NCBI GenBank assembly: GCA_031549735.1
Contig: JAVBPF010000002.1
Coordinates: forward strand, 19,790 to 83,789
Reading direction: 5' to 3'
Length of the DNA: 64,000 bases
Source: Oscillospiraceae bacterium
GTDB taxonomy: Bacteria > Bacillota > Clostridia > Oscillospirales > UBA929
The notes below the pieces were generated by a model that was not told the DNA's origin, searched no databases, and saw only the letters and a list, made by a program, of their open reading frames with translations. The position numbers and the translations under genes were made by a program. Below, in pieces: positions 27,851 to 36,917 of this stretch (positions within the stretch are counted from its first letter, which is position 1; each line of letters begins with the position of its first letter).

Positions 27851-30250
27851 TCAGCACAACTCCGCGTGCGCGACCGGCGGCCGCGCGGCGGACAGCATCG
27901 ATTCCAGCGGAACGTCGTCTCCCCTGACCGGCCGTTTGGCAAAGTCGATGGCGGCGGGCAACACGGCGTCCATGTGATCGGCCAGCACAAAATGCAACGC
28001 CTGCCGAACGGCCGGATCGATATCGGCCAGGTCTTTTTCGTTGTCGCGCGGCAAAATTACGGTGTGCACCCCGGCCCGGAAGGCGGCCATGGTCTTTTCT
28101 TTCAGTCCGCCGATCGGCAGGACGCGTCCGCGCAAAGTGATCTCACCGGTAAGCGCCACATCCCGGTTGACCGGCGCGCCGGTGAGCGCCGAAATCATGG
28201 CCACGGCCGAGGAAATCCCGGCCGACGGGCCGTCCTTGGGAATGGCGCCGCTGGGGAAATGAATGTGGATGTCATAGTTCTTGTGAAAATCGGGCTCGAG
28301 TCCGAGCGCCCCGGCACGACTGCGGATGTAAGTGAGCGCGGCGCGCGCCGACTCCTTCATCACATCGCCCAGGTTACCGGTCAGGTCAATTTTTCCGCTT
28401 CCCTTGACCACGCCCACTTCCATATCGAGCAATTCTCCGCCGACGCGTGTCCACGCCAGACCGGTGGCCACACCGACTTCGCCGGCGCCATGGAGCCGTT
28501 CGGGTTTGTATTTTCGGACACCGAGATAGGTTTCTAAGTGTTCAGGTCTAATGGTAACTTTTTCAGCGCCGCCGACGATCTCCATCGCCGATTTGCGGCA
28601 AAGCGCCGCCAGCTCCCGCTCGAGCTGACGCACACCCGATTCTCGAGTGTATCCGGCGATGACTTCACGAATGGCCGTGTCGGAGACGCGGCATACATTT
28701 CGGGACAACCCATGGCGAGCCAATTGCTTCCGCCACAAATGCTTTTTGGCGATTTGCAGCTTTTCCTCATCGGTATAGCTGGAAAGCTCAATGATCTCCA
28801 TACGGTCAAGCAACGCGGGCGGGATGGTTTCGGTCGTGTTGGCCGTTGTGAGGAAGAGAATATCGGACAGATCGAAGGGCAATTCAACATAGTGATCGCG
28901 GAACTCGGCGTTCTGCTTGACGTCGAACAACTCCAACAGAGCGGCCGCCGGATCGCCGCGGAAGTCATGCCCCAGCTTGTCGATTTCGTCGAGTACCAAT
29001 ACGGCGTTTCGCGTGCCGGCCTGGGACACAGCGGTGAGGATGCGGCCGGGCATGGCGCCGATGTAAGTCTTGCGGTGGCCGCGAATGTCGGCCTCGTCCC
29101 GCACTCCGCCCAACGACAGGCGACCCATTTTGCGGCCCATGGCGCGTGCCACCGAGGTAGCTACCGAGGTCTTGCCCACCCCCGGCGGGCCGACCAAACA
29201 GAGGATTTCCCCTTTTAGCTGAGGGGCGAGCTTTTTCACGGCCAGGAACTCCAAAATGCGTTCCTTGACCTTGGCCAGACCGTAGTGATCGGCGTCCAAC
29301 GTCCGGCTCGCCGCCGCGATGTCGAGTTTCTCGCGGGTATTCTTGTTCCAGGGCAGCGCCAGACAGGTATCCAGCCAGGTTCGGATCACGGCCGACTCCG
29401 GGGAGGACGTGTGCATGTGGGACAAGCGGTTGACCTCGGCCAGCAACTTGTCTTCAGCGAGTTCGGCCAACCGCAGTTTTTTGATTTTGTCGCGGTACTC
29501 GTCCACTTCCTGACCCAGGTTTTCCGACTCACCCAGCTCGTCCTGAATGGTTTTGATCTGTTCGCGGAGAAAATACTCGCGCTGGTTTTTGCTCAACTGC
29601 TGGCGCAGTTTGTTTTGAATGTTGTGTTCGATGTCCAGAATCTCGTTTTCGTGCGAAAGCAGCGAGATAACCCTGGTCAGCCGGTCGATGGGGTTGCTCA
29701 ACTCCAGAATGGTCTGCTTCTCCTCATGGCGAACGACCATGTTCTGGGCGATGAAGTCGGCCAGATGACCGGGATCGGTGATCTCGGTGACGCCTGCGGC
29801 CAACTCGGCCGACAGACGCGGCGCCAATCGCGCGTATTCATCGAAAAAAGCGTAGGCCTGGCGGATGATGGCTTCGACTTGATCCTCCGATACACGGCGG
29901 CGGCGCGCTTTGACCGGCGCGATCTCGGCAAGGAAATAGGGCTCGGAGGTCATGCGGTTGCTGATTTTGGCGCGGGCGACACCCTCCACCATCACGCGCA
30001 TGTTATCGCCGGGCAGTTTGAGAATCTGGCAGATACGGGCGACGGTGCCCACCTCGTAGAGATCGTCAAAATCAGGCTCCTCGGAGCGCAAATCACGCTG
30101 CGCCACCAAAAAAACCTGTTGATTTTCACTCATGGCCGCTTCAATCGCCCGGATGGACTTTTCCCGTCCGACGTCGAAGTGTACCAGCATTTGCGGAAAA
30201 ACAATAAGGCCGCGTAAAGCCAGCAACGGGAGGGTTTTTATCTCATCCAC
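27851..30250 (-). CDS. lon: ATP-dependent Lon protease
   Basis: [16 protein letters not shown]-domain, Walker [10 protein letters not shown], proteolytic DGPSAGI with Ser. Start set at GTG 30250, 7 nt after AAAGGAG (ORF-track start 30274 is an upstream GTG without RBS). Confidence 0.9.
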
Positions 30251-30305
30251 AAAAACACTCCTTTCTTGTGTCACTGTCGAAAAGCAATGACCAACATATT
30301 TCTGT

Positions 30306-30334
30306 ATTATATCTCACGTTGCGACGCATGTAAA
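30306..30334 (-). promoter_or_regulatory. Sigma-A-type promoter for lon
   Basis: Minus strand TTTACA (30329-30334), 17 nt, TATAAT (30306-30311). Confidence 0.55.
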
Positions 30335-30458
30335 GAAAAAACCGGATCCTGTCAGGGCGAACGCACTCTGAGAGTCATTCACCTTGACCAGACCCGGAAA
30401 AGATAACCAAAGGACAACGACGGTTGTATCGAAATAGTTGCTCCCCAATCGTCGCACA

Positions 30459-31187
30459 TCAGGGTGTACTAGGTTTCTCAACGTGGTTTTCAAAATAATT
30501 CTCAATGCTGAGGGTCGCCGTTCCGGCGTTGCCGGTACCGGTGAACGTGATTTTGTAGATCTGATAGTGGTCGCCGGCGCCGCCCGACAGCACAATTCCG
30601 GATGCGAAGGGTATTTTACTATATATGGAGCCCGATTGTGGTGGGAAGCCCTTGCTGTCCGGCACCTTGGTCACGCATTCCAAGGTGGCCGTGACAGCTG
30701 TGGGACATTCGAGGGACATCGTATATTGACAGCCGAGCGACGATTCATCCTGTCCCCGATTCATTACCTTGACGTAATAGACCAGCTCTTGTGGCTCGGG
30801 CGGTTGCGGTTCCTCAGGAGGTTCGGGGTTTTCTCCCGGTTCCTCGGAAGGCTCATCGGAAGGTTCCGACGGATCCTCAGGCTCGGGGACGGGCGTCGGG
30901 AAGGACAGCGCCAGGTCAGCGCGGTGAGATGTATCACCGACAAGAGGCACCGTAGGCGCAATTCCTGTAAAGGAGGAAACGTTGTTGCCAAGAGAAACGG
31001 AGAAGTTGTATTGCCCGGCGCTGATGCTGTTGTTTGCCACGCGGACGGACAGGGTTTGCACCGCCAGCGCCGTCATCTGCAAAACAAAAAGCACAACCAC
31101 AAGCGCCGTCAGGAAGCGGACGATCCTGCGGCTTTTCATCCTAGTGTGCGTACTACGCTCATGTGTGTGGTCGTTGCTGCGGGGCAT
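30459..31187 (-). CDS. Secreted/membrane-anchored hypothetical protein with acidic Pro/Glu linker (last gene of the SipW/TasA-like operon)
   Basis: Start chosen at ATG 31187 (alternatives 31205, 31139). Hydrophobic N-terminal segment FLTALVVVLFVLQMTALAV. Two domains are joined by PEPEDPSEPSDEPSEEPGENPEPPEEPQPPEPQ. Confidence 0.6.
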   Translation of the reverse strand: MPRSNDHTHERSTHTRMKSRRIVRFLTALVVVLFVLQMTALAVQTLSVRVANNSISAGQYNFSVSLGNNVSSFTGIAPTVPLVGDTSHRADLALSFPTPVPEPEDPSEPSDEPSEEPGENPEPPEEPQPPEPQELVYYVKVMNRGQDESSLGCQYTMSLECPTAVTATLECVTKVPDSKGFPPQSGSIYSKIPFASGIVLSGGAGDHYQIYKITFTGTGNAGTATLSIENYFENHVEKPSTP

Positions 31188-31246
31188 ACCTTCACCTCGT
31201 CTCAAAGAGATGGTACGAATGTCAAAACAATCAGCGCCCTATGAAA

Positions 31247-32383
31247 TCACGGCTTTTCGGCTTGTTGGTGCCGCCGTTCCTCTTCTTGCGCGGTGGGACA
31301 GGCCAGAAGCGACTCCAGATCCGGAAGCGAGGAGTGCAGATCACCGGCGTCGCCCGCCCAGTCGTGCGTGGAGCGAACCGGCTCGGGGATGGGTTCGAGT
31401 TTTGCCTTAGGTTCGGCTTTGGCCTTGCTCTTGGGTTTGGATTCAGGCACAGATACGGGCTCCGACGCAGGCTCTGGGTCAGGATCTGGCTTGGGCGTTC
31501 GTTTCGATCTTAAAAACATTGCTTTTGGCCCGGATTCCGAATCGGATTTGGGCTTCGGTTCGGGTTTGCGTTCGATTTCAGACTCCCCTTCGAAGACAAG
31601 CATGGACTCAGCCTTCTCCGTTCTTTCGGGTTCCGCTTCAAGCTTAACATTGGTTTCCAGAACGGGATCGCCCGGAATGGGCATTTTTGTTTCGAAGTCA
31701 ATATAGGAGGATTCGGAAGGAAGATCCTCTCCCCGCTCCAGACGCTGGAGCTTACTCTTCAACAGTTCCAGTTCCTCTTGGGCCTTCATATATCTTTCTT
31801 TTTCCCCGTCAAGCTCAGCGTTGAATTCTTCCTGCTTTTCAACACGGTAGGCTTTCCAATGGCGAAGAAAACGAACGGTCAGATACGCGATCAAGAGTAC
31901 AAACGGAAGCAAAACCAGAATAAGGTATCCGGCAGTGGAGCGCAAGTAGTCAAAGAGATAACCCGCGCTGGGAATGCGGAAACGATACTGCCCCAGGACG
32001 CTGCTCTCAGGAGCCGGTACCGCGTCGACAACGCCGTTGGCCACACCGATGGTGACAAAGGCGGGTTCGCCTTCGTAGGTGGTGCGCTCATATATCTGGT
32101 GCGTTACCACCAGCCCGAAATTGGCCGGATCGATTGATTCAAAGGTTATGACATCGCCGGGTTGAAGCGTAGCCGGGTCAACGGTCTGCGAAACCACAAC
32201 ATCGCCGGCGTTAAATGTGCCTTTCATCGAGTCGGACAGCACGACAAAGAACTGAAAGCCGAAAACACCTTTTTGATTGTTGAAGCTTGTAAAGGAAAGA
32301 ATGGTGAATATCATGACAATGAAGGTAAACACCATCAGCAGAGCCACAAGAACGCGCCGGGCCACCCGCAGGACTTTCTTCAT
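31247..32383 (-). CDS. sipW: SipW-type (archaeal/ER-type, Ser-His) signal peptidase I with ~200-aa C-terminal extension
   Basis: N-terminal TM; VVLSDSMKGTFNAGDVV (compare B. subtilis SipW LSGSMEPEF); VVTHQI His box; second TM ~aa 150-171; then 207 further residues. Confidence 0.8.
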   Translation of the reverse strand: MKKVLRVARRVLVALLMVFTFIVMIFTILSFTSFNNQKGVFGFQFFVVLSDSMKGTFNAGDVVVSQTVDPATLQPGDVITFESIDPANFGLVVTHQIYERTTYEGEPAFVTIGVANGVVDAVPAPESSVLGQYRFRIPSAGYLFDYLRSTAGYLILVLLPFVLLIAYLTVRFLRHWKAYRVEKQEEFNAELDGEKERYMKAQEELELLKSKLQRLERGEDLPSESSYIDFETKMPIPGDPVLETNVKLEAEPERTEKAESMLVFEGESEIERKPEPKPKSDSESGPKAMFLRSKRTPKPDPDPEPASEPVSVPESKPKSKAKAEPKAKLEPIPEPVRSTHDWAGDAGDLHSSLPDLESLLACPTAQEEERRHQQAEKP

Positions 32384-32451
32384 ACCGAATCTCCTTGGAA
32401 TGAATAGATAAACCTATTATAAGGCCTTTCGGTGGCCGGTGTCCAATCCTT

Positions 32452-33132
32452 TTAGAAATCAATCTCATTGTTGGTGTATTGCGTCGCCGAAACGTGGAGG
32501 TCGGCGGTCAGGATCAGACCTTGATAACTATTGCCCGCCCAGTCGCACATTTTGTAATCAAGACGGTAAATCCGTACCGAGGGGTAATCCGGTCCGTTGG
32601 ACGGCGGGCTGGCATCCAAATACTCGTAGCCAAGATCCAGGTCAACCAGATCGGGCAGTACGCTCCAAGGGCCGGAAGGAACGGGTACCAGTGTGTCGTC
32701 GGCAAAGGACGGCACCTCGGTGAGACCGTCAAGCGGGGTCAAGCGGTATAGGATGACTTCCTGCAAGCGGCTGTTTGGGACAATTACATCGAAGCTGAGG
32801 GTGTATTTCAGGTCCAATGAACCATAGTTGACGAATTTAATGTATTTGGTGTTCCAGAGGCTGGGCTCCATGAGGTCATCACAAATCAGAGGCGGGGTTG
32901 TCTCCAGGGCGAAATTGTTGGTAACCGTGTCCAGCGGCGCGACGCCGTCGGCGTGGATGGGGGTACCGTACTTATCATAGCCCAGAACTCGAAGCTGCAG
33001 CGTCCCCATCTCGATGCGCGTACCTACATTGCCATACGTCACCGAAAACCACGCCAAGGTGGTTCCGGTCAGCATGACAAACGCCAGCAATATCGCACAC
33101 AGGGACATGAAGATGTTTCGCTTTTTATTCAT
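32452..33132 (-). CDS. TasA/CalY (camelysin, M73)-like fibre subunit candidate with SipW-dependent-type signal peptide
   Basis: 226 aa; signal LLAFVMLTGTTLAWFS followed by GTLQLRVLGYD; paralogous to the N-terminal ~200 aa of 33275-35164. Confidence 0.7.
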   Translation of the reverse strand: MNKKRNIFMSLCAILLAFVMLTGTTLAWFSVTYGNVGTRIEMGTLQLRVLGYDKYGTPIHADGVAPLDTVTNNFALETTPPLICDDLMEPSLWNTKYIKFVNYGSLDLKYTLSFDVIVPNSRLQEVILYRLTPLDGLTEVPSFADDTLVPVPSGPWSVLPDLVDLDLGYEYLDASPPSNGPDYPSVRIYRLDYKMCDWAGNSYQGLILTADLHVSATQYTNNEIDF

Positions 33133-33197
33133 ACAACAAGCTCCGTACTCCGGACAGGGCTTCCGGAGTTAATGGGGGCACTGGAAAGCCGCCGGGT

Positions 33198-33228
33198 GCG
33201 GGCGGACGCCAAGGTGGCGTCCGCCCGC
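33198..33228 (-). promoter_or_regulatory. Intercistronic GC hairpin between the two TasA-like genes
   Basis: Perfect 13-bp stem GCGGGCGGACGCC (33198-33210) / GGCGTCCGCCCGC (33216-33228), 5-nt loop, no U-tail. Confidence 0.4.
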
Positions 33229-33274
33229 AGCAGCGGGGTGCTGTAATGGTTATCGGTGGTTTTGCGGGGTGGGT

Positions 33275-35164
33275 TTAGCCGATGTAGAATCGCAAGAAGT
33301 CGGGTTTGCCGTCATAGCTCTGCCCAATGATTCTGGGGCTTCCGGTGATGCCTGTGTTGTTTGCGATCAGTCCATCAATATAGGCGTCGGTGAGTCCGGC
33401 CGTGTCCTGGTTGGCACGCTGCCAGGCGCCTCTAAAGGCTACAGGAGCGCCGGCTCGAGTGTCCATGGACTTGTTGATGAAAGTGTTGCCGGTGAACAGC
33501 GGATAGACGATATCCTCTTTGCACCAGCCACTGTAATCGGAGTTGCCCGAAAGCGTAAAGTCGTTTAGGAAAATGACCACGCTGTCATCAAATAGGTTGT
33601 CACGCACGATCAACTGATCCGGATTGGCGTTTTTGCCGGCGCCCTTGTTTATGCACAGCGCGCTGTTTCGGAAGTTGTTGTTGATGATGGTGTACGCACC
33701 CTTGGCGCCCATCATCAAGCCGACGGCCTGGTCACCACTATTGCCCCAGAAATTGTTCGAATCAAAGGTGCAGTTTTTGATGACACCGGAAGCGTCCGGT
33801 CCGTACTCAAGCAGTTTGCCATCAATAGAAATGTAGCCGGGATTACTGTCGTCATGGAAAGTAAAGGTAAAGCCATCCATAGTAACGTTGGAAGCTGCGA
33901 CAAACAGAGCCTGTTGACGATAGCCCATGCCGCTTTCGCGCTTGAACGTGATAATGGTGTTGTCGGGATCCTCGGCAATGAGTGTGATGTTGTCCGTCGT
34001 GATCATCAGGTTGGCGACATCTGCAACGAGATTCGATTCAGGCGACGTGGTGTTATAGATACCGGCGGGCACAACCGCGACTGCTCCATCATCGAGATCC
34101 TCAACGGCCGCAACAAACTCAGCACCCGTCATGCCATCCGGAAGAATAACAAGATTGTCTATTTCTGCTACGGTGGCTTCGTTGTGGAAGTCTCTCACAT
34201 TGCCGGTGCCCGGAGTCGCATCCAGTCCAAGGTCAGTATCAACTAGGAACAGACGCAGGTCGGAGCAAAGGTTGATGACTGTGTTCGGAGTATTAAATGC
34301 AACGCTCTTGGCAAAAATCTTACCATTCGCGATGTCCGAAGCACAGGAGAGATCATACTCAAAAGAAATGTCCACGCCCGGGGCATCCAACTTGTATCCG
34401 TTCAGATCAAAGTTGTGCGCCTTGTCGATCGTCAGAACCAAAGCCGTGCTCGGAGCAGTAATGTCGGCGCCGAAGATGATGGTCGATCCTTCGTCGGCGG
34501 CAATCGCGGCGAGCAGCTCATCCCATGTGCTGACTACCGTCATCTTGGCATCGTCGATATCCTGGATGGCCGTGACCAAAATGTCAGCCTCGAAGGACTT
34601 ATTCTGATAATAGTTACCGGCCCAGTCGCAGAACTTGTAGTCGATTCTATAGAATTTTGAATCGGTGCCGACTGGAAGCTTGACAAACTCGCCGCCCTCA
34701 GAAGTCAACTCACTCATGGGTTTCCAGTTATCAGTTTTGTCAATGTCCTTTCGGTCGCCCAGTACGTCAACCGGAACCAAACGATACAACAGAACATCTT
34801 CCAAACCGCCGTCATTGGCGCTGAACTGCAGCTTAAATTTGAGATCTAAAGTGCCGTTGTTTTTGACCTCTATGTACTTGTGTCCAACCAGGCTGGGTTC
34901 CCAATTTTCCTCGCTGATGAGCGCCTCGGTACTCGTCAGAGCGAAGTCGTTGGTAGGTTCCAACTCGGTGACCGCATAGGAGTTAGCGTCGTAATCATAC
35001 CCCAAGACCTGAATCTGCAGCGAACCGGAATCAATCCGATTGCCCTTGTTGCTGGCCACCGAGGTGAACCAGGCGAAGGTGGTCGCGGCCAGCAGCACGA
35101 CGCACAGCAATAGTGCGACGCCGCTGAACAACAGCGAACGTTTGGTGTGGGTCTTTCTTTTCAT
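33275..35164 (-). CDS. TasA-like N-terminal domain fused to a parallel beta-helix-repeat region; SipW-dependent-type signal peptide
   Basis: 629 aa. Signal is LLLCVVLLAATTFAWFT, then GSLQIQVLGYD...YRIDYKFCDWAGNYYQ. The C-terminal ~400 aa has periodic short repeats rich in N/G/D/T/I (e.g. NCTFDSNNFWGN, TIINNNFRNS, LIVRDNLFDDS), as in pectate-lyase-like beta-helices. Confidence 0.7.
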   Translation of the reverse strand: MKRKTHTKRSLLFSGVALLLCVVLLAATTFAWFTSVASNKGNRIDSGSLQIQVLGYDYDANSYAVTELEPTNDFALTSTEALISEENWEPSLVGHKYIEVKNNGTLDLKFKLQFSANDGGLEDVLLYRLVPVDVLGDRKDIDKTDNWKPMSELTSEGGEFVKLPVGTDSKFYRIDYKFCDWAGNYYQNKSFEADILVTAIQDIDDAKMTVVSTWDELLAAIAADEGSTIIFGADITAPSTALVLTIDKAHNFDLNGYKLDAPGVDISFEYDLSCASDIANGKIFAKSVAFNTPNTVINLCSDLRLFLVDTDLGLDATPGTGNVRDFHNEATVAEIDNLVILPDGMTGAEFVAAVEDLDDGAVAVVPAGIYNTTSPESNLVADVANLMITTDNITLIAEDPDNTIITFKRESGMGYRQQALFVAASNVTMDGFTFTFHDDSNPGYISIDGKLLEYGPDASGVIKNCTFDSNNFWGNSGDQAVGLMMGAKGAYTIINNNFRNSALCINKGAGKNANPDQLIVRDNLFDDSVVIFLNDFTLSGNSDYSGWCKEDIVYPLFTGNTFINKSMDTRAGAPVAFRGAWQRANQDTAGLTDAYIDGLIANNTGITGSPRIIGQSYDGKPDFLRFYIG

Positions 35165-35543
35165 GTGTCTGTCTCTCCTTTGCCATACTCAAAATATGTA
35201 CAGTGGAAGCCCACCGTGTCACAAAAAATACCGCAAACGCGGGATGAAATCGATTGAGCCTCATGGCGTTTGCCGGAAAAATAGGAAACGCGACACTCGA
35301 GCAAAAATTCCATTAAGTGAGCAAACTGCTGAATGTACACGCGAAAAATGAAGGAGAATTAATAAATATGCATAAAGTATTATACCGCGCGAAGAAAATT
35401 TTGTCAATCTGCAATAATATTTACAGTCGTACAGATTTATTATGTTCACCAACTTGTTACACGAGTCCCATGATATAGCAAAGGCCGCCATCGTCAGCTA
35501 TAACAGCGACAATGACGGCCTCGTGAGCGATTGGAAGTGCGGT

Positions 35544-36860
35544 TTATGACGCGTTTTCGCGGCTGTCCACCGCTTTTTCACTGGTCTTAACAGAGGACTT
35601 GACCGGCGTCTTCTTCTTTTTCTTCTCGGGGTTATACTTGATGTCAGGCGGGGCGCCGTCTTTGACCGATTCTTCGGTGATGGTGACCACCTCGATGGTC
35701 GGGTCGGACGGGATATCATACATGATGGGAATCATCAGATTTTCAATGACTGAACGCAGACCGCGCGCGCCGATGTTGCGCTCGATGGCCCGATCGGCCA
35801 ACGCGCCCAAGGCCCCCGGCTCAATGGCCAAATCGACATCGTCGTACTCAACAAGTCGTTTGTACTGCTTGGTCAGCGCGTTTTTCGGCTCGGTGAGAAT
35901 TTTCACCAGCTCATCCCGGGACAGAGAGCCCAGCGGCGCGATGACCGGCAGGCGTCCGACCAGCTCGGGAATGATGCCGTACTTCAATAGATCGTGGGGC
36001 TGGATTTCTTTAAACAGCGTCGTGATGTCTTTTTCCTTCTTGCTCTCGACCACGGCGCCAAAGCCCATGCCCTTTTTGCCCAAGCGATCCTCGATGATCT
36101 TGTCGATACCGTCGAAGGCGCCACCGCAGATGAACAGGATGTTGGACGTGTTGACCTGAATGAACTCCTGGTGGGGGTGCTTACGGCCACCCTGCGGCGG
36201 GACATTGGCCACGGTACCCTCCAGAATTTTGAGCAGCGCCTGCTGCACCCCTTCCCCGCTGACATCGCGGGTGATGGAGGTGTTCTCGCTCTTGCGCGCG
36301 ATCTTGTCCAGCTCGTCGATGTAGATGATGCCGCGCTCGGCCAGTTCCACATCGTAGTCGGCGGCCTGCACCAGACGGAGCAGGATATTTTCCACATCTT
36401 CACCCACATAGCCGGCCTCGGTCAAGGTGGTGGCATCGGCGATGGCAAAGGGAACATTCAGAATTTTGGCCAGTGTCTGCGCGAAATAGGTCTTGCCGCA
36501 GCCTGTGGGCCCCAGCATCAGGATGTTGCTCTTCTGCAGCTCGACATCGTCGCCGCCGCCGAAGTAAATTCGCTTATAGTGGTTGTAAACAGCCACCGAG
36601 AGCGCGATTTTGGCCGCCTCCTGACCGATCACATACTCATCGAGCGTCTCCTTGATCTCACGCGGACGGGGCAACGTGTCGAGCGACTCGGGTGCTTTCT
36701 GCACAACGGTGTCGTGGTTCTCATCCAAAATGCTGAGGCAGAGATGCACACACTCGTTGCAGATGTAAGCTCCCGGGCCGGCGATCAGGCGTTTGACGCG
36801 GTCCTGATGTTTGCCGCAAAAGGAACATGTGATGGTCTTCTTGTCATCCATTCTTGGCAT
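35544..36860 (-). CDS. clpX: ATP-dependent Clp protease ATP-binding subunit ClpX
   Basis: Start at ATG 36860 after GGAGG; zinc finger CSFCGK..C..C; Walker A GPTGCGKT; [10 protein letters not shown]; IGARGLR. Confidence 0.95.
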
Positions 36861-36917
36861 AAAAACCTCCTGAGATGGGCGCACACATTTTTGCGTTATT
36901 TTAAAAATAGAAACCAC

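Follow-up and report, generated by a model that had tools for sequence, protein, structure and literature searches.

A four-gene, probable TasA-type fiber operon with a SipW-like signal peptidase between clpX and lon in an Oscillospiraceae bacterium

The stretch of DNA analyzed here, called the window below, comprises 64,000 nucleotides of contig JAVBPF010000002.1 (positions 19,790 to 83,789) of an Oscillospiraceae bacterium (assembly GCA_031549735.1). Between its clpX and lon genes lie four consecutive and co-directional genes, g1 to g4, which fill a gap of 5.27 kb and which, in our judgment, probably form a self-contained operon for SipW-dependent, TasA-type extracellular fibers with its own consensus promoter. 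All of them are on the minus strand and, in the order of transcription, they are g1 (33275-35164, 629 amino acids [aa]), g2 (32452-33132, 226 aa), g3 (31247-32383, 378 aa) and g4 (30459-31187, 242 aa from an ATG located behind a GAGGTG ribosome-binding site, or 248 aa if counted from an upstream TTG). An earlier note on this DNA, made from the letters alone, had described four minus-strand genes at this place, and the coordinates of the open reading frames (ORFs) bear it out. The conserved flanks that it named, tig-clpP-clpX on one side and lon-engB on the other, are likewise confirmed, with tig, clpP, clpX, lon and engB/ysxC each scoring far above the NCBIfam cut-offs.

The first two genes encode paralogous proteins. 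Residues 1 to 205 of g1 and g2 are 38% identical over 215 aligned residues (E value, 4e-39), and the motifs that had been pointed out as common to both are all present, namely TT(F/L)AWF, G(S/T)LQ(I/L)xVLGYD, EPSL and YR(I/L)DYK(F/M)CDWAGNxYQ. In g1, a predicted signal peptide (residues 1 to 31, ending in ATTFA, with WF following the cleavage site) precedes a TasA-like jelly roll at approximately residues 32 to 205. The second protein consists of the TasA-like domain alone behind a predicted signal that ends in GTTLA, again followed by WF, and is the candidate major subunit of the fiber. Word-indexed homologue searches with g2 and g1 returned essentially only the query proteins themselves, and a phmmer search of g2 against the PDB gave no match. 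An exhaustive HMMER search with a profile built from g1 and g2 recovered 5,558 cluster representatives at an E value of ≤1e-3 and 2,316 at ≤1e-10, almost all of them with a basic n-region, an h-region, the sequence GTTFAWFTD and then a domain of about 200 aa. Peptidase_M73 matches 28 of the 32 closest homologues (best E value, 6.5e-14), TIGR04088, the model of the SipW-cognate signal peptide, matches 24, the BsaA family matches 8 weakly, and TasA itself matches 2.

The family profile and the structural models lead to the same fold. When the g1/g2 family profile was compared to the PDB, the best matches were the TasA entries 8aur and 5of1 (E value of about 0.01), with the motifs PG...NxGSL and NxYQG...ATQ aligned. 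The AlphaFold (AF2) model of g2 has a predicted local distance difference test (pLDDT) score of 85.8 and a predicted template modeling score of 0.76, and its sole significant PDB match in a structure search was the TasA fiber 8aur_A (E value, 4.6e-5; probability, 1.0). The model of g1 is confident over residues 45 to 310, with pLDDT values of about 85 to 93 in the N-terminal domain, and its only significant match was likewise 8aur_A (E value, 8.7e-4), beside which the archaeal bundling pilus 7ueg_A appeared (E value, 6.6e-3; probability, 1.00). From profile and model together, we place g1 and g2 in the TasA/camelysin superfamily, as divergent members. Conservation within the family is among the highest at the first residues of the predicted mature protein, W28 and F29, and at I40, G43 and L45 (g2 numbering). 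Residues 31 to 40 of the g2 model have no regular secondary structure.

Beyond the TasA-like domain, g1 continues with a long C-terminal passenger. Residues 206 to 310 form a second domain (pLDDT of 83 to 94 in the model) that, according to a local jackhmmer search, is common to many members of the family, and residues 210 to 279 score 22.2 to 22.7 bits on PF20585, a putative pectate lyase-like adhesive domain with a cut-off of 24.3. Residues 311 to 629 are mostly below a pLDDT of 70 and have no Pfam match. Four PbH1-like motifs of the form h-h-x-(N/D)-(N/C)-x-F, spaced 27 to 37 residues apart, are found between residues 461 and 562, against 0.24 expected, and none of 2,000 shuffled sequences reached four. 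Foldseek with the g1 model gave weak matches to PL6 and pectate lyases, and the NosD model matched g1 weakly (E value, 0.12). The Beta_helix family PF13229 did not match g1, although a syntenic homologue of g1 (P0007) scored weakly on it (16.6 bits against a cut-off of 25.9), and phmmer of the g1 C terminus against the PDB found nothing. A right-handed beta-helix in the C-terminal region is thus probable. The earlier note had called g1 a beta-helix or enzyme fusion; the passenger is there, but the two labels are weakly evidenced.

The third gene encodes a signal peptidase of the SipW type, as had been proposed. It scores 90.8 bits on TIGR02228, the endoplasmic reticulum (ER)/archaeal type of signal peptidase I (cut-off of 51.85), and 89.2 bits on the Bacillus SipW equivalog NF046067, below the cut-off of 190. 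By these scores it is of the same type as Bacillus SipW but does not match it at the level of an orthologue. Residues S52 (in SDSM), H95 (in THQI) and D120, which we take to be catalytic from established knowledge of SEC11 and SipW, are invariant in an alignment of g3 with four syntenic homologues, and in the g3 profile these positions align to SGSM, HRV and D of human SEC11A/C. The enzyme therefore has a catalytic Ser and His (plus Asp) and not the Ser-Lys pair of bacterial signal peptidase I. A phmmer search of the PDB with the catalytic domain gave no match. An N-terminal transmembrane (TM) segment, the catalytic domain and a second TM segment (residues 152 to 173, approximately) are followed in g3 by a tail of about 200 aa (residues 176 to 378, approximately; 31250-31858, minus strand), in which a coiled-coil-like stretch precedes one rich in Pro, Glu and Lys. 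Tails are shorter in the syntenic homologues, and Bacillus SipW has about 190 aa in total. The genes of the presumptive substrates, g1, g2 and g4, flank g3, and TasA-like genes likewise adjoin a sipW-type gene at the metagenomic loci that we label L082, L083, L085, L086 and L089.

The product of g4 begins with a basic n-region and a TM or signal segment (ending in QMTALA, followed by VQT after the predicted cleavage site), after which comes a first strand of the TasA type, NNSISAGQYNF. A 40-aa acidic linker of Pro and Glu (38% P and 30% E) connects it to a beta-rich C-terminal domain of about 105 aa. When the g4 family was aligned with the TasA-like profile by hhalign, the similarity spanned the h-region, the cleavage region and the first mature strand (Prob of 87% and E value of 3.9e-6; Prob of 52% with the single g4 sequence), and a search of all six-frame ORFs of the window with the TasA-like hidden Markov model matched only g1, g2 and g4, the last with an E value of 0.004. 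In L083, L085, L086 and L089, the product of the gene directly after sipW is built in the same way at its N terminus: a long, basic n-region leads into a TM segment, which is followed by (S/T)A(L/F)A and then by x-T-x-x-V-x-N-x-(G/N)-N-x-I-x-A. The acidic linker and the C-terminal domain are shared by L083 and L085 as well. In L085 the g4-like gene is split into two ORFs (2111-2455 and 2702-3082) across the region of the acidic linker. The split could mean that the gene is frameshifted or a pseudogene, or that the low-complexity sequence was assembled wrongly.

The word-indexed search returned no homologue of g4, and comparison of g4 and its family with Pfam, NCBIfam and the PDB gave no relevant match, only low-complexity noise, with no similarity to TapA/YqxM or to its immunoglobulin (Ig) domain. 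When the C-terminal domain was compared with the TasA-like profile, hhalign paired V.I.NGG...F.YSL with YI.V.N.GSLDLKF at a Prob of only 3.5%, and we do not take this as a sign that g4 is a complete TasA-like domain. TapA has only the N-terminal AFHDI/AFNDI segment in common with TasA and starts the filament by donating this strand (PMC10151520, PMC9674648). Since the likeness between g4 and the TasA-like subunits is similarly limited to the N-terminal segment, g4 is best read as a non-homologous analogue of TapA, and by this analogy we propose it as a TapA-like initiator or anchor. In the earlier note it was an unrelated fourth component, a description that we would drop, given that its N terminus is homologous to that of the TasA-like paralogues and that it has a syntenic partner at four other loci.

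The four genes constitute a module that recurs in at least four further lineages known from metagenomes, and its chromosomal location differs among them. The order in L083 is the same as here: a fused TasA-like gene comes first, followed by one for a TasA-like protein of about 230 aa, then by sipW with its tail and finally by a g4-like gene. In L085, L086, L089 and L082 the order is partial or varied. Across these loci the SipW proteins are 49 to 62% identical (about 40% in L086 and L089) and the subunits 30 to 41%. As to context, the module follows spoIIID in L083, L084 and L093, lies beside infC-rpmI-rplT in L086 and is found beside leuA in L089. A scan of metagenomes with the SipW alignment yielded only two distant loci. 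Another locus, L087, is of high GC content and has an unrelated arrangement. On a 5.3-kb contig (L090), a g1-like fused gene of the TasA family (P0013, 67-4661) is accompanied by Rep3 and ParA-type genes, so that at least one relative is probably plasmid-borne.

Transcription of the module is likely to start upstream of g1, where a promoter scan found a sigma-70-type promoter (35379-35407, minus strand) with TTGACA and TATAAT separated by 17 nucleotides (nt), matching the consensus at 12 of 12 positions. It is followed by a 5' leader of about 215 nt (35165-35378, minus strand) with a long hairpin at approximately 35232-35276, a T6 run at 35223-35229 and, at approximately 35175-35180, an AAGGAG ribosome-binding site. 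Located about 60 nt ahead of the start codon of g1, the hairpin with its TTTTTT run looks like an attenuator and may act as one. An Rfam search of positions 30000 to 36000 at a permissive threshold detected no riboswitch and no known leader, and the leader sequence is not conserved in related loci. The spacer between g1 and g2 contains a perfect, GC-rich hairpin of 15 bp with a 3-nt loop and no U tract (33197-33229, minus strand), and the calculated folding energy of the spacer is -64.8 kcal/mol (z = -5.1). In L083 (9849-10000) and L082 (582-763), neighboring TasA-like genes are separated by similar GC-rich hairpins. The g1-g2 hairpin probably serves the processing or stability of the mRNA, or terminates transcription in part, and would in this way set the stoichiometry of the subunits. 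Its recurrence between TasA-like genes suggests post-transcriptional tuning of subunit ratios, although the direction of such tuning is ambiguous because the hairpin comes after g1 and not after g2. A second promoter-like site is found in the g2-g3 spacer (32416-32445, minus strand; TGGACA and TATAAT separated by 18 nt, 11 of 12 positions) and represents a consensus match only.

These features can be assembled into a mechanism. The peptidase g3, with its Ser52/His95 dyad of the ER/SipW type, would remove the signal peptides after TTFA in g1, TTLA in g2 and TALA in g4. In each case, cleavage would bare an N-terminal strand that is conserved: WF...N.I..G.L for both g1 and g2, and V.T..V..NN.I.AG for g4. 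TasA uses its N terminus as the donor strand, and its conserved residues lie at the interface between protomers (PMC9674648, PMC10151520). By donor-strand exchange as in B. subtilis TasA, the bared strand might insert into the beta-sandwich of the next subunit, and g2 would in this way chain into the shaft of the fiber. We would expect g1 to co-polymerize and to decorate or tip the fiber with its adhesin-like domain and probable beta-helix, serving as a binding or glycan-active module. With its donor-type strand, acidic linker and unrelated C-terminal domain, g4 could nucleate the fiber by providing the first strand, as TapA does, and possibly anchor it.

Several results weigh against this reading. 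On Peptidase_M73 (PF12389), g2 scores 19.7 bits, below the cut-off of 22.5, and g1 has no match at an E value of ≤1; on TIGR04088, whose cut-off is 19, g1 has 14.6 bits and g2 does not match; and g1 reaches 12.5 bits on the BsaA family TIGR04090, where the cut-off is 60. Because these direct matches fall below the curated cut-offs, the assignment to the TasA-like proteins rests on transitive and structural evidence. A failure of the profile searches, which the earlier note had named as grounds for giving up its TasA-like assignment, is therefore nearly what we found if the wording is taken literally, yet the transitive and structural results support the assignment: the TasA fold and the membership in a large family with TTFAWFTD signals stand, while the direct scores remain sub-threshold. 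For annotation, the lesson is that curated cut-offs miss the g1/g2 subgroup. The superposition on 8aur is also modest (template modeling scores of about 0.4), and the C-terminal domain of g4 has no detectable similarity to TasA or TapA. A hairpin after g1 is awkward, too, as it is not predicted by a simple model in which g2 is the abundant subunit.

A further difficulty comes from the family as a whole. About 90% of the 153 family members listed carry 200 to 900 aa of varied C-terminal sequence, which resembles a module for the delivery of passengers and would fit monomeric, carrier-type secreted proteins equally well. The TasA-like domain could then be a non-polymerizing carrier or surface module, with g1, g2 and g4 as SipW-processed monomers (an adhesin or glycan-active enzyme and its accessories). 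The adhesin-like second domain and the PbH1-like repeats of g1 would suit such a role, and polymerization is proposed here by analogy. However, g2 is the domain and nothing else, so it would have no passenger to deliver, and the residues just past the predicted cleavage site are among the most conserved of the family, a pattern expected of a role after secretion. The best structural matches, moreover, are two donor-strand fibers, TasA and AbpA, and the partner that is conserved in synteny retains, as TapA does, only the N-terminal strand. We consider monomers unlikely on these grounds. A structure on the spore surface or a spore appendage, in place of a biofilm matrix, would be much less probable still. 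TasA was first described as the spore-associated protein CotN, the PDB entry 5of1 is titled TasA "Spore coat-associated protein N", three contigs have a homologous module immediately after spoIIID and not far from spoIIM, and the relatives retrieved with ClpX are Clostridia. The promoter of g1, however, is a perfect vegetative sigma-70/sigma-A consensus, and with clpX and lon as neighbors here and infC or leuA elsewhere, the link to sporulation is inconsistent. Finally, the name of the sole Pfam family matched by g2 and its homologues, Peptidase_M73 (Camelysin metallo-endopeptidase), might suggest that g1 and g2 are metalloproteases of the camelysin (M73) type. We reject this as extremely improbable: His and Glu are absent from the invariant and near-invariant columns of the family alignment, neither g1 nor g2 has an HExxH motif, and the solved member of the family is a fiber subunit (PMC9674648). 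Fibers of the TasA type thus remain the interpretation that we favor.

To place the cassette in its lineage, we compared 80 genome loci retrieved with ClpX (60 to 71% ClpX identity). The source ClpX is closest to metagenome-assembled genomes of Oscillospiraceae and Pseudoflavonifractor, at 69 to 71% identity. In about 30 Oscillospiraceae-like loci the gap between clpX and lon measures 60 to 270 bp, versus 5.27 kb here; in many others retrieved with ClpX, such as those of Clostridium, it is about 0.4 to 3.4 kb. The earlier note had contemplated that the same four genes might occupy the clpX-lon interval in all relatives; homologues of g1 to g4 were found in none of the 80 loci. Synteny therefore supports an accessory cassette, apparently inserted into an ancestrally tight clpX-lon junction. 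The source lineage itself, as far as can be judged from these sequences, is a poorly sampled one of the Clostridia. All four proteins are singletons at 90% clustering among about 15 billion public proteins and come from one NCBI contig and one Sequence Read Archive run.

Whether the cassette was acquired recently is a separate matter. The interval (30275-35543) had been described as visibly AT-richer than its flanks, and it does have a GC content of 52.4% against 56.8% for the remainder of the window. The signal is weak, however, at about 1.2 standard deviations (SD; gene-to-gene SD of 4.1%), g4 is at the window average (55.6%), and the lowest values within the interval belong to the promoter and intergenic stretches. 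ORFs elsewhere in the window, at 1071-2384 (45.7% GC) and 59438-60983 (about 48%), are clearly below the cassette, so that other parts of the window deviate more in composition than it does. As evidence for an island, the GC shift is weak, and the search for mobility ORFs or tRNAs in the window and for direct repeats flanking the cassette was negative, which also speaks against the insertion part of our interpretation. An old cassette, inherited vertically in a poorly sampled lineage with no recent acquisition, has a substantial, if minority, chance of being the correct account of the origin, and of the origin only. GC and GC at third codon positions lie within those 1.2 SD of the other genes of the window, no integrase or transposase is at hand, and with nearest relatives only 60 to 71% identical in ClpX the insertion could be ancient; the L083 lineage, in addition, keeps the module at the same site in three contigs. 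On the other hand, the junction is tight in every Oscillospiraceae-like relative retrieved, the module occupies differing loci from lineage to lineage, and the contig of one relative bears Rep3 and ParA genes. Given the weak composition bias and the lack of mobility genes, acquisition is plausible but undated. Of the claim that the system was acquired, then, the tight synteny of clpX and lon in all family-level relatives retrieved is what holds up, qualified by the distance of those relatives (at most 71% ClpX identity), the weak GC shift and the missing integrase, tRNA and repeats.

At the edges of the interval, the stop of clpX is at 35544. Its ORF is listed with a GTG start 19 codons upstream of MPRMDDKK (N-terminal part at 36861-36917, minus strand), and the true start is probably the internal ATG, because homologues and NCBIfam models align only from residue 20 to 25 or so. 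Within the lon ORF, which runs from 30274, translation most likely begins at a GTG at 30250, the start given in the earlier note, with an AAAGGAG site upstream. A promoter at 30334-30306 (minus strand; 11 of 12 positions) indicates that lon retains its own. The only Rfam family above its gathering score in the whole window was a lysine riboswitch (RF00168; 8568-8743, minus strand; 99.6 bits; E value, 2.9e-25).

To our knowledge, TasA-type fibers are the only donor-strand fibers of Gram-positive bacteria. Nearly all work on them concerns Bacillus, with some on C. perfringens. Homologues of TasA are nevertheless widespread, with a patchy distribution (PMC9245690). The operon described here is real, accessory and well delimited, most likely a SipW-dependent matrix fiber system of the TasA/BsaA type in an uncharacterized architectural variant, and together with its relatives it represents a compact and recurring four-gene version in uncultured Clostridia. 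More tentatively, and with clearly less than even confidence, we suggest that the cassette stands for an unstudied class of "decorated" donor-strand fibers of the TasA type in gut and anaerobe Clostridia. In such fibers, TasA-fold subunits would bear large adhesin or glycan-active beta-helix passengers, the fiber would act as a display scaffold, proteins of the g4 family would replace TapA as the initiator, and the g3 tail, taken as cytoplasmic, would perhaps couple processing to assembly or regulation. The value of the locus lies in the fused subunit, the non-TapA initiator and the recurrence of the module, which together make the hypothesis of decorated fibers testable. If fused subunits co-polymerize, this would explain the passengers on most of the approximately 5,500 family representatives and would amount to a general way for anaerobes to display binding or enzymatic modules on fibers. 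If all the thousands of fused members polymerize, there would be a widespread fiber-display system in Gram-positive bacteria.

Among the systems described elsewhere, one parallel is the bundling pilus of Pyrobaculum calidifontis, AbpA/AbpB (PDB 7UEG; PMC9245690), a donor-strand fiber of the TasA fold for which a TapA-like protein encoded downstream has been proposed as the initiator of assembly; the match of g1 to 7ueg_A is a probable one. Unlike our locus, that of Abp lacks a dedicated signal peptidase, and the two are related only very distantly. Within the TIGR04088/PF12389 family, g1 is a typical member with a C-terminal extension: its TTFAWF signal leads into a domain of about 200 aa, behind which comes a variable passenger. 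Both g1 and g2 depart from this family in lacking the usual D after AWFT and in their (L/V)LGYD motif, which is specific to the g1/g2 subgroup. In the literature that we searched, we found no experimental study of a member with a fused passenger.

Another parallel is sipW-bsaABCRSD of C. perfringens (PMC7395162), a clostridial sipW operon that likewise has several secreted paralogues. One of BsaABC assembles into very stable polymers, with the others in accessory roles (PMC7395162). That operon also contains an internal hairpin or terminator, which modulates transcript ratios there (PMC7395162). The differences are that in C. perfringens sipW comes first and a two-component system is part of the operon, neither of which is the case here, and that BsaA proteins have a single domain, whereas g1 is multi-domain and far below the cut-off on the BsaA model, with its 12.5 bits against 60. 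Because operons with sipW and multiple paralogues, such as C. perfringens sipW-bsaABC, were already known (PMC7395162), the architecture is less unusual than the earlier note implied.

With tapA-sipW-tasA of B. subtilis (PDB 8AUR and 5OF1; PMC9674648, PMC10151520), the cassette shares a dedicated ER-type signal peptidase gene that adjoins the genes of its substrates, a subunit with the TasA-type jelly-roll or beta-sandwich fold and a cleavage region in which A is followed by (A/W)F and then by a conserved N-terminal strand. TapA is to TasA what g4 is to the TasA-like subunits, a minor partner that has in common the N-terminal strand only. Sequence identity to B. subtilis TasA is about 13% in the structural alignment. 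Unlike Bacillus SipW, g3 has a tail of about 200 aa past the second TM segment; its score on the equivalog model is 89 bits, where 190 are required. The Ig domain of TapA has no similarity to the sequence of g4, which matches no YqxM/TapA family. The order of genes here is subunits, sipW and TapA analogue, and where B. subtilis has one TasA there are two TasA-like subunits, one of them with about 420 aa of extra domains. The earlier note was thus right that the system differs in composition from tapA-sipW-tasA, in its two TasA-like subunits and in having g4 in the place of TapA.

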